This document shows positions 23,555-26,307 of a stretch of 64,000 nt of DNA, piece after piece. Position 1 is the first letter of the stretch; the number at the start of each line of letters is the position of its first letter. Made by a program: the position numbers and the translations under genes. Origin of the DNA: an uncultured bacterium (GTDB lineage Bacteria > Chlamydiota > Chlamydiia > Chlamydiales > JAJFMA01); assembly GCA_964445105.1 (NCBI GenBank), contig CAYUJS010000004.1:660-64659 (forward strand), read 5' to 3'. The notes below the pieces were generated by a model, which saw nothing but the letters and a program-made list of their open reading frames with translations, did no database searches and was not told the origin of the DNA.

Positions 23555-24283
23555 CTATAGCAACCTTTTGAGTTGCTCAAGATAGCTATGTAAACGGATG
23601 TCGAAAGGGATATCTGCCTCACAAAGGCCGATGGCCTCTTCAAGCGCTGTAGTCGCTTCTTTTCGCTGGTGGAGTTGCAGATAGCAGCTAGCCTGGCCTG
23701 CTTTAGCTAGTGCGGAGGGAGCTAACTGCATAGCTTGACCAAAAGCCAGCAGCGCCGGCTCCCATCGCTCTTGGTGCTGTTCGGTTTGCCCTAAACCGAT
23801 CCAAATCTCAGGCGCCTGTGGCGCCAGCGTCGCCAGTACAACAAAGACCCCGTAAGCTTCTTTGAAGCGGTCTTGCTCTACTACTCTTTTCCCGATCAGA
23901 TACAGCGCCTCTACGTCAGCCTTGGAGAGCCCCATTTGTTGATAGAGGCTGGTTTCGCTTTCGCCCATTGCTTCGAGCTCTGAGAGGGTCATCTCCTTCT
24001 CTAGGGCCGCGCCCAGACTAGTCAAAGCGGCCTCAGCAACGGTGCGCTCCGCCTCCGAAAGGCAAGAGGAATGAACAGAAGCCTCCTTCTGCATGCATTC
24101 GACTCCCAAGGTGAAGGAAGCTAGCAAAATATCCAGATCTTCTCTGGCTTTAAGGAGCGCTCTTTCCTCCAATGCTTTTTGGGAAAGCAAAGAGGAAGGG
24201 CGCATTGCCGCCTTGTCTGCGGCCACCTGTTGCACGTTTTTGAGAAAGCGGCCTTGAACTTCTTCATAGAGTTGAATTTTCAT
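23555..24283 (-). CDS. LcrH/SycD-like (class II) T3S chaperone with an N-terminal extension.
   Basis: 242 aa. The C-terminal half, LYLIGKRVVEQDRFKEAYGVFVVLATLAPQAPEIWIGLGQTEQHQERWEPALLAFGQAMQLAPS...CYLQLHQRKEATTALEEAI, has the three-TPR LcrH/Scc2/Scc3 pattern. The start overlaps the stop of the upstream gene (ATGA). Confidence 0.6.
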   Translation of the reverse strand: MKIQLYEEVQGRFLKNVQQVAADKAAMRPSSLLSQKALEERALLKAREDLDILLASFTLGVECMQKEASVHSSCLSEAERTVAEAALTSLGAALEKEMTLSELEAMGESETSLYQQMGLSKADVEALYLIGKRVVEQDRFKEAYGVFVVLATLAPQAPEIWIGLGQTEQHQERWEPALLAFGQAMQLAPSALAKAGQASCYLQLHQRKEATTALEEAIGLCEADIPFDIRLHSYLEQLKRLL

Positions 24284-26307
24284 GTCGGTTCACTCCCCTC
24301 TGATGATGACGAAGATTCGGATGTTGGATTTGAGGGTCCTGAGCTTGAACTTTGGATGTCTCGCTTAAAAGCATGCATATTTATGTTGCCGGCGTTTGAG
24401 ATACGGTCTTTGATTAGCTCGCGTGCGCTGCTTTTAGCAGTCGCTAGTAGAATTTCCCCACAAAAAAGCTGGCCTTGTGGGTTTGTGCGAAAAATGGGAA
24501 TATCGCCGTGTGCGCAGTCTTTTTCAATAGTTGGCTCCAGCCTAAGAGTCAGATCTTTTTTTATCAAATCATTTATCAAATTGTCGGTGAATGCAGCTGA
24601 GCTATTTTTCAGCTCAATGCGCAGTCTTTCCCCTAGTTCGTTATCGCTAACCTCGAAATCATACAACGGCGCTATTATCCTCTTGTCGTAAAGCTTCCGC
24701 CCGACAAGGTCGCAAATGTTTTTTGAACGCATGTCGAATTGAACAAAATTAATGCTGCTTTCAAGCTCCTGGGTCGGTACAAGGACGTGCCGAAGGGGAA
24801 GACCATCTGGTACATTTTGCAAAAAATTTATAAGCGCATCCTGGTTATCTTGGACTAGACTTTTCATTTGGTTGAATCCTTCTTCGATATCGGAAATGTA
24901 GGCAACAGCTTGAGGCACTTCCTGGTTTGCTTCATCAAGCAAGACGACTTTATTATTTGTAGCTTCGCTCGTTTGAAAATCCGTGAAAATCAGGGCAGCA
25001 TCCGCGAGCCCGGTCTGTTCCTTGCCCATCAGGATTTCTATATTAAACGCGACCTCTAGGTCTATTAGGTGTGGCTGCTGTGCATGGCAAATCACGTTAT
25101 CTTGGTGCAAGTCCCCGATGCCGAAAATTTGGCTAATGGCTTGGATAGCCCCTATTATGTGGTAATATTCTTTCATTTGTTGCCTTGTTAGTTGGTAGTC
25201 AGTGTCGCTGTGGGACAAGAACTTGACATAGCCGTATTCCTTCTTTGGGAGATGGGTAAAAGTGGGGAGGATCTTTTTCTTCACCTGTTCGTTAGCATCT
25301 GCTTTGCTAGACGATGACTGGTTGCTAGTGGCGCTACTTGCTAAATCATTTATGGTACTAAATAAGCTGTCTCTTTCGCTGCATATTAGACTATCCACCT
25401 CGATGCTTCTTGGCTTATAGACAAGTTTTACTGTATCATCACCCACAGAGAGTTCTATAAATGAGGGCTTCAGGCCCCCATTATGAGTCTCGCCTTGTAC
25501 TTGTGTGGTTTTCACCAAATTAAGCTGGTCGCTATCTGGATCTTTATCTGGAAAAAAAGTGCGAATTATGTCATTTTTGTCATCGTGTATATTTAGTTCA
25601 ATGGTTTCCATCGCCAACTTGAAATTAGACAGCCGGTTTCTGATTAGTGATCGTACGTGATCCAGACCCTGACCGGCTAATTGTGAACCTTTATTATCAG
25701 GGCAATTTAGTTCTTTTAACTGTTCCTGGTTACTTAATATTTCTTTGATCAACAAATTTTTGTTGTCTTTGTTGTGGGCTGCTTTTGGCAAGCTTTCCAT
25801 AAATAATGTTATGATACTCTCTGTTATGTCTTGAAAATTATTTATTGACTCGTCGTTCTGTTCATCGATGATGTTGATGTTTTGTATCAGCGCCTCCAAG
25901 GTCAACCGGCTTGGGGCTGTGTCTTCTATTTTTGGCCCAACGTTGCGAAGGGACCGCAAGCTCAGAAAGGCTAGACCAAGAGAAGCTACTAGTAGAGTGA
26001 CGGCGCCAATAGTCGATTGGCCTTTTTGATGCCACGCAGCTTCAACCAGCAAAATGGCTATTGTAAGCGCTACTACTGCGCCGCTTATTTTAAATAGACT
26101 CTGTTTATCAGTCAGTTGTGATCCAAGCGATTTCGGCCAGGTGAGCCCGGGCGGGAGCCCGGGCGGGGCTGCGTCTTTCATGCTTTTCGCAGTTTCTTTG
26201 CGTTCAACGCTTTCTACGTGCCTTATGGGAGCGCTCCTGCCTGAGCTTTGTGAGCTTAAGCTATCCACTAACCCTCCTTGAATACTGTTTGTTCCATACG
26301 AACTCAT
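24280..26307 (-). CDS. Bilobed-hydrophobic-domain protein with a LanM-dehydratase-like (DUF4135, kinase-fold) motif set; candidate T3S substrate.
   Basis: 675 aa. Two hydrophobic segments at aa about 72-118 (ISGAVVALTIAILLVEAAW...IGAVTLLVASLGLAFLSL). KLVYKPRS at aa 294-301. GDLHQDNVICHAQQPHLIDLE gives D399-x-H401-x-x-N404-x11-D416-x-E418 (nt 25054-25113). Ser-rich C-terminal tail. Confidence 0.6.
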   Translation of the reverse strand: MSSYGTNSIQGGLVDSLSSQSSGRSAPIRHVESVERKETAKSMKDAAPPGLPPGLTWPKSLGSQLTDKQSLFKISGAVVALTIAILLVEAAWHQKGQSTIGAVTLLVASLGLAFLSLRSLRNVGPKIEDTAPSRLTLEALIQNINIIDEQNDESINNFQDITESIITLFMESLPKAAHNKDNKNLLIKEILSNQEQLKELNCPDNKGSQLAGQGLDHVRSLIRNRLSNFKLAMETIELNIHDDKNDIIRTFFPDKDPDSDQLNLVKTTQVQGETHNGGLKPSFIELSVGDDTVKLVYKPRSIEVDSLICSERDSLFSTINDLASSATSNQSSSSKADANEQVKKKILPTFTHLPKKEYGYVKFLSHSDTDYQLTRQQMKEYYHIIGAIQAISQIFGIGDLHQDNVICHAQQPHLIDLEVAFNIEILMGKEQTGLADAALIFTDFQTSEATNNKVVLLDEANQEVPQAVAYISDIEEGFNQMKSLVQDNQDALINFLQNVPDGLPLRHVLVPTQELESSINFVQFDMRSKNICDLVGRKLYDKRIIAPLYDFEVSDNELGERLRIELKNSSAAFTDNLINDLIKKDLTLRLEPTIEKDCAHGDIPIFRTNPQGQLFCGEILLATAKSSARELIKDRISNAGNINMHAFKRDIQSSSSGPSNPTSESSSSSEGSEPT

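Follow-up and report, generated by a model that had tools for sequence, protein, structure and literature searches.

A standalone LanM-type dehydration domain with a predicted Inc-like membrane anchor and a chaperone-like partner gene in an environmental chlamydia

We describe P0001, a 675-amino-acid (aa) protein encoded on the minus strand at positions 24280-26307 of a 64,000-nucleotide (nt) stretch of contig CAYUJS010000004.1 from an uncultured chlamydia (this whole stretch is hereafter the window), together with P0002, a tetratricopeptide repeat (TPR) protein encoded by the gene coupled to it. Profile searches and structural modelling together confirm P0001 as a standalone, predicted catalytically complete dehydration domain of the LanM type (class II lanthipeptide synthetases), with an anchor like that found in the inclusion membrane proteins of chlamydiae (Incs) and a conserved chaperone-like partner, in a chlamydia bearing a type III secretion system (T3SS). 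The best-supported hypothesis that we infer from these traits is an injected host-modifying kinase/dehydratase: P0001 may be a type III secreted (T3S), inclusion-membrane-anchored Ser/Thr kinase that probably also eliminates phosphate and acts on host proteins, a reading to which we give a probability of roughly 45%. A preliminary description had read the gene as encoding a bilobed-membrane, LanM-dehydratase-like enzyme coupled to a class II T3S chaperone of the LcrH type, and this interpretation is upheld in part, since the dehydration domain, the membrane hairpin and the coupling to a TPR protein stand while the class II chaperone assignment is only tentative. The main features are as follows.

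24280..26307, minus strand: P0001 coding sequence, 675 aa (open reading frame (ORF), Pfam DUF4135, AlphaFold2 (AF2) model, structure match to CylM and LicM2)
26104..26307, minus strand: disordered Ser-rich segment of P0001, candidate T3S signal region, aa 1-68 (AF2 confidence, composition)
25942..26103, minus strand: two predicted transmembrane (TM) helices joined by a short loop, bilobal domain of the Inc type, aa 69-122 (hydropathy, AF2)
24328..25902, minus strand: LanM dehydration domain with capping helices, kinase N- and C-lobes and KA domain, aa ~136-660 (VIA alignment against LicM2 and CylM)
23555..24283, minus strand: P0002, TPR chaperone-like protein with a ~110-aa N-terminal extension, coupled to P0001 (Pfam TPR, TIGR02552, ATGA overlap)

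In the Pfam search, residues 220-422 of P0001 matched DUF4135 (PF13575) with an E-value of 6.1e-31 and a score of 108 bits (cut-off 29), as expected from the LanM-dehydratase-like identity that had been proposed from motifs. In class II lanthipeptide synthetases, DUF4135 serves as the dehydration domain, and Pfam places it in the protein-kinase clan (PMC10676384, PMC9758233). The NCBIfam LanM model TIGR03897 also aligned with residues 221-431 (E 2.6e-25), the score staying under the cut-off set for full-length proteins since P0001 has the dehydratase part only. The AF2 model of P0001, built on an alignment of its relatives, displayed a mean predicted local distance difference test score (pLDDT) of 80.4 and a predicted template modelling score (pTM) of 0.76, and a Foldseek search with it retrieved CylM and LicM2 as the top two matches (E 4e-14 and 6e-13), followed by PI3K, VPS34 and mTOR. 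When aligned with VIA-align, model residues 136-661 covered residues 68-627 of LicM2 (Z 21.7, 413 residues), and residues 136-654 covered residues 86-622 of CylM (Z 20.3), the latter being the structural comparison that the preliminary description had suggested. The Z scores for VPS34, mTOR, ATR and PI4K were 13-15, with 14.9 for the best PIKK; thus, according to the model, P0001 shares its kinase fold with the PI3K/PIKK superfamily, but this likeness is far weaker than that to LanM. With a sequence E-value near 1e-30 and Z above 20 against both solved LanM structures, the resemblance to LanM is far beyond chance.

The extent of the match is equally informative, as it stops at CylM residue 622, where the dehydration domain is complete, and therefore the modelled P0001 comprises the whole LanM dehydration domain and no part of the cyclase. 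Consistently, no LanC-like zinc cyclase domain (PF05147) was found by Pfam in the 675 aa, and a small-ORF check of window positions 23500-27200 detected no precursor-like ORF, both absences having been pointed out beforehand. Because the LanC domain and a nearby precursor ORF are both missing, P0001 is not a lanthipeptide synthetase, and a complete LanM enzyme was accordingly ruled out.

For the assignment of catalytic residues, a profile built from P0001 together with its paralogs was aligned to CylM (PDB 5dzt) and LicM2 (6st5) in a search of PDB sequences, and conservation was counted over an alignment of 32 relatives that included one true LanM. In CylM, the kinase residues are K274 (in the YKP motif), D347, H349, N352 and D364, and the residues for elimination are D252, H254, R506 and T512 (PMC4550811). 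Their counterparts in P0001 are located as follows.

25483..25491, minus strand: E273 and H275 of the P-loop GETHNGG, corresponding to CylM D252 and H254, elimination (hidden Markov model alignment to CylM)
25414..25416, minus strand: K298 in VYKPR, catalytic lysine, equivalent to CylM K274 (CylM alignment; invariant in the 32 sequences)
25096..25113, minus strand: D399, H401 and N404 of the catalytic DxHxxN loop, corresponding to CylM D347, H349 and N352 (CylM alignment)
25054..25062, minus strand: D416 and E418, metal-binding DxE, with D416 equivalent to CylM D364 (CylM alignment; invariant in the 32 sequences)
24772..24792, minus strand: KA-domain residues R506 and T512, corresponding to CylM R506 and T512, elimination (profile alignment to CylM)

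These positions agree exactly with the KLVYKPRS motif around K298 (nt 25414-25416) and with the D399/H401/N404 and D416/E418 set (nt 25054-25113) of the preliminary description, which had also named for LanM enzymes a D-x-H-x-x-N ... D-x-E pattern with its two Asp residues 17 apart; this spacing is indeed that of the CylM numbering (PMC4550811). The phosphate-elimination residues, which are likewise kept in P0001, had been absent from that account. H275, D399 and N404 are invariant, H401 and R506 occur in 31/32 sequences and T512 in 30/32, while position 273 is Glu in 19 and Asp in 13. This retention of the full CylM kinase and elimination set across 32 relatives argues, at the sequence level, for real catalysis, and since all the residues for both phosphorylation and phosphate elimination are kept, the enzyme probably makes dehydroamino acids. 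The possibility of a pseudoenzyme was ruled out, as the catalytic residues are invariant across the 32 sequences. Separately, the DxHxxN loop of the paralog P0006 (L003:1108-3141:+) reads DLNEEN, with Asn at the place of the catalytic His, a change that may have modified or abolished the activity of this paralog.

Upstream of the catalytic domain, the first 73 residues of P0001 have pLDDT values below 50, and 11 Ser are found among the first 50 aa, a segment that could serve as a T3S signal. It is followed by two hydrophobic helices, placed at residues 69-93 and 97-120 by hydropathy and at 69-93 and 99-122 by AF2, and the two adjacent hydrophobic segments noticed earlier (nt 25954-26094) fall inside the span found by both approaches (aa 69-122). 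The bilobal hydrophobic domain of Incs consists of two TM helices of 15-32 aa separated by a loop of <30 aa, with 40-60 aa overall (PMC3048545). According to hydropathy and AF2, the P0001 hairpin, with a loop of ~5 aa and a hydrophobic span of ~52 aa, lies within these limits.

The stop codon of P0001 overlaps the start of the next gene, as had been observed before, and the overlap is ATGA, indicative of translational coupling. The encoded protein, P0002, has 242 aa and TPR matches in Pfam, and its best NCBIfam model is SycD/LcrH (TIGR02552; E 7.7e-18; 64.5 bits, with the cut-off at 104.8), for which the term LcrH-like is a fair one, whereas assignment to the class II chaperones is only tentative. 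Pairs of a TM-DUF4135 gene and a TPR gene recur in two independent assemblies (L109 and L110), in which the TPR genes directly beside the DUF4135 genes encode proteins with 34% and 24% identity to P0002; in L110 both genes are on the same strand, with the TPR gene 5 bp downstream, in the arrangement seen in the window. In a comparison of these two loci with our genome, peptide deformylase and PriA displayed 42-45% identity. Furthermore, a TPR protein related to P0002 adjoins the paralog P0010 on contig C34. A complex prediction for P0001 residues 1-135 with P0002, made with the chaperone alignment, gave a score of 0.08 (mark 0.32) and speaks neither for nor against binding.

The genome to which the window belongs (contig C4) has 1.87 Mb in 79 contigs and is 94.7% complete. 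Its DnaB is 93% identical to that of an uncultured Chlamydiae metagenome-assembled genome and ~70% identical to those of Parachlamydiaceae, Waddlia and other Chlamydiales, and because of these identities the organism is taken, on sequence grounds, to be an environmental chlamydia (Parachlamydiales). The P0001 gene was found identical in contigs from three independent studies of biofilter and drinking-water metagenomes, habitats that are rich in amoebae. Five DUF4135 paralogs are encoded in the genome, namely P0001, P0005, P0006, P0007 and the truncated P0010, and hydropathy analysis places an N-terminal hairpin in 4 of the 5; paralog expansion is typical of effector families. Parts of a T3SS are present as well, including a relative of SctV/HrcV and, on contig C50, an LcrH/SycD chaperone that scores above the cut-off and lies beside a CopB-like translocator. 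The SctV/HrcV-like export protein is split over two adjacent ORFs (C55:8495-10575, L006/L007), which may reflect a frameshift, a sequencing error or a true split gene.

A phmmer search of 1.84 billion representatives recovered 446 relatives of P0001 at E ≤ 1e-3, and the N-terminal hydrophobic hairpin was observed in several of the closest relatives that are not paralogs. DUF4135 proteins were found in 59 of the 401 Chlamydiota genomes sampled, often as several paralogs of 450-560 aa, and in 0 of 14 control genomes, with an N-terminal hydrophobic segment in some of the chlamydial relatives and not in others. Exact peptide patterns of P0001 gave no match in the genome contigs of GTDB, a result that, the patterns being exact, does not imply absence. 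Several of the sampled Chlamydiota genomes (e.g., G319, G300, G099, G031 and G147) also encode full-length DUF4135 proteins of ~950-1070 aa, with scores like those of complete LanM enzymes; for chlamydiae, genuine class II lanthipeptide synthetases would be out of the ordinary. In the literature searched, we found neither a description of chlamydial enzymes with DUF4135 or of the LanM-like kind nor the combination of a standalone LanM dehydration domain, an Inc-like anchor and a chaperone-like partner.

On the reading that we prefer, P0001 would be delivered by the T3SS of an amoeba-associated environmental chlamydia with P0002 as its dedicated TPR chaperone, which would shield the hydrophobic hairpin within the bacterium; translational coupling to a TPR partner of this kind would suit a T3S substrate that is hydrophobic and has to be masked before export. 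After secretion, the hairpin (aa 69-122) would anchor the protein in the inclusion membrane in the manner of Incs, so placed that the N-terminus and the C-terminal catalytic domain both face the host cytosol. There, ATP-dependent phosphorylation of Ser/Thr would proceed as in CylM at a kinase site formed by K298, D399, H401, N404 and D416, and the phosphate would then probably be removed at an elimination site formed by E273/H275 and R506/T512, yielding dehydroalanine or dehydrobutyrine. The targets would be host (amoeba) proteins and not a bacterial precursor peptide; no precursor peptide occurs near any of the paralogs, and the substrates would for this reason most likely belong to the host. 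Within this scheme, secretion, inclusion-membrane location, host targets and the elimination step are the parts we infer. The T3SS, the Inc-like hairpin, the chaperone pairing and the five paralogs fit a secreted or inclusion-membrane enzyme, and the paralog expansion fits an effector family.

Several points weigh against this proposal. P0002 falls under the LcrH/SycD cut-off; not all of the wider chlamydial DUF4135 family has the hairpin, which several relatives in other chlamydial genomes lack; and the genome has LanB/LanC clusters of its own, which make a bacterial substrate conceivable. Incs are not normally known to require chaperones. Moreover, LanM enzymes normally select their substrate by means of a leader peptide.

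The alternatives differ mainly in the substrate and in the fate of the phosphate. P0001 could be an enzyme of the bacterial inner membrane for which one of the chlamydia's own peptides or proteins is the substrate of phosphorylation and dehydration, possibly in concert with the genome's standalone LanC-like cyclases; the TPR protein would then be an assembly factor for membrane proteins. The conserved residues of LanM dehydration chemistry would be in their place in such an enzyme, the two LanB/LanC clusters and a candidate precursor are available in the genome, and dehydration domains can act without a cyclase, as CcaM does (PMC10676384). However, none of the five paralogs has a precursor in its neighbourhood, all of them are outside the LanB/LanC clusters, the best model for the TPR partner is a T3S chaperone family, and five divergent paralogs with Inc-like hairpins and chaperone pairing are better explained by an effector family. 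We regard action on a bacterial substrate as rather unlikely, albeit the strongest competitor of host modification.

Loss of the elimination step, leaving a kinase that phosphorylates host or bacterial proteins, would be compatible with E273 at the position of CylM D252, a Glu shared by 19 of the 32 relatives, the more so as CylM D252 mutants are slowed at phosphate elimination (PMC4550811). Nevertheless, Asp to Glu is a conservative change and H275, R506 and T512 are retained, making a pure kinase improbable. Least probable of all, with only a slight chance in our view, is a membrane-anchored lipid kinase of PI3K/PI4K-like fold with inclusion-membrane phosphoinositides as its substrate. PI3K, PI4K and PIKK kinases have a related fold (VIA Z 13-15), and chlamydiae are generally known to remodel inclusion phosphoinositides, but the structure is much nearer to LanM (Z >20 vs <15), and the conserved LanM-specific elimination residues R506 and T512, together with the P-loop H275, are ones for which a lipid kinase would have no need.

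Compared with known systems, P0001 has in common with the LanM enzymes (CylM, PDB 5DZT; LicM2, PDB 6ST5; LctM) the fold of the dehydration domain and the kinase residues, and it also has the counterparts of the CylM elimination residues H254, R506 and T512, with Glu in place of CylM D252. In contrast to LanM, which is soluble and cytoplasmic, it has no LanC cyclase and no precursor, starts with a disordered N-terminus and a membrane hairpin, and is accompanied by a TPR chaperone-like partner and a five-paralog family in a genome of the obligate intracellular type. DUF4135 domains outside the classical LanM context are known from CcaM, which dehydrates Ser without a leader peptide (PMC10676384), and in this respect CcaM/LanMbC resemble P0001; however, CcaM is soluble, is fused to a zinc-independent class III-like cyclase and belongs to a cluster for peptides that are made by the ribosome and modified after translation (RiPPs) with a YcaO (PMC10676384), none of which applies to P0001. 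A dehydrazole LanMbC was ruled out, as DUF4135 was the only domain detected, with no cyclase domain and no YcaO, and the neighbours are Nth and housekeeping genes.

Incs resemble P0001 in having two TM helices of 15-32 aa with a short loop, near the N-terminus and after a short hydrophilic segment (PMC3048545), but unlike them P0001 has a large catalytic domain that originates from RiPP enzymes, and Incs do not usually come with a TPR chaperone-like partner of their own. The LcrH/SycD chaperones are like P0002 in their TPR fold and in the linkage of their genes to a hydrophobic T3S-type substrate, whereas P0002 scores under the family cut-off, has an N-terminal extension of ~110 aa and is paired with an enzyme rather than a translocator. 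The phosphothreonine lyases OspF, SpvC and HopAI1 provide a functional analogy only: they are injected enzymes that take phosphate off Ser/Thr of host proteins through beta-elimination, the product being a dehydroamino acid that is not reversed, but their fold is unrelated to that of P0001 and they act on residues phosphorylated by host kinases, whereas P0001 would carry out the phosphorylation itself.

To our knowledge, LanM dehydration domains have been known only within RiPP pathways, that is, those of peptide antibiotics, and if our reading were true, RiPP enzymology would have been moved into host manipulation. Should host proteins be dehydrated, the outcome would be a permanent electrophilic modification that goes beyond the known phosphothreonine lyases, as dehydroalanine can react onward with thiols or amines; even as a kinase alone, P0001 would represent a new kind of chlamydial effector kinase. 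An entire family of T3SS-injected effectors converting host Ser/Thr irreversibly into dehydroalanine or dehydrobutyrine, with kinase and lyase in one inclusion-membrane protein, is a more speculative extension that we consider somewhat unlikely; in such a family, host targets might differ from one of the five paralogs to the next.

Other features of the genome include two class I lanthipeptide-like clusters, on contigs C34 (L106:3716-9946) and C53 (L107:5082-11808), each with a LanB (Lant_dehydr_N and C; 1050 and 1032 aa) and two LanC-like proteins, the former also with a candidate 77-aa precursor (L106:3716-3949:+) that has an acidic leader and a core rich in Cys, Ser and Thr. Such LanB/LanC clusters are unusual in a chlamydia. 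An examination of the genes neighbouring the other DUF4135 paralogs found no precursor-like small ORFs beside them. Between the LanB/LanC cluster of C34 and the paralog P0010 lies a Fic/DOC protein (Fic_N, Fic and a SoFic-like C-terminal domain; L106:10626-11753:+), Fic proteins being frequently AMPylating effectors.

The DUF4135 paralogs have a GC content of 44-48% and a GC content at third codon positions (GC3) of 0.41-0.49, against ~50-52% and 0.52-0.59 in neighbouring housekeeping genes, a difference that may reflect acquisition or a distinct expression class. A promoter/terminator scan of the locus gave 11 promoter-like matches, with 6.0±2.4 in shuffled sequences, a slight excess that was not used. 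The genes around P0001 are ordinary ones, encoding endonuclease III, MnmE, phosphatidylserine decarboxylase, DnaB and NifU; the endonuclease III gene (window 22911-23525, plus strand; HhH-GPD with Fe-S cluster motif) adjoins the chaperone-like gene on the opposite strand. Farther along, positions 32411-34831 (minus strand) encode an 806-aa MORN-repeat protein, of a type that is typical of intracellular chlamydiae.

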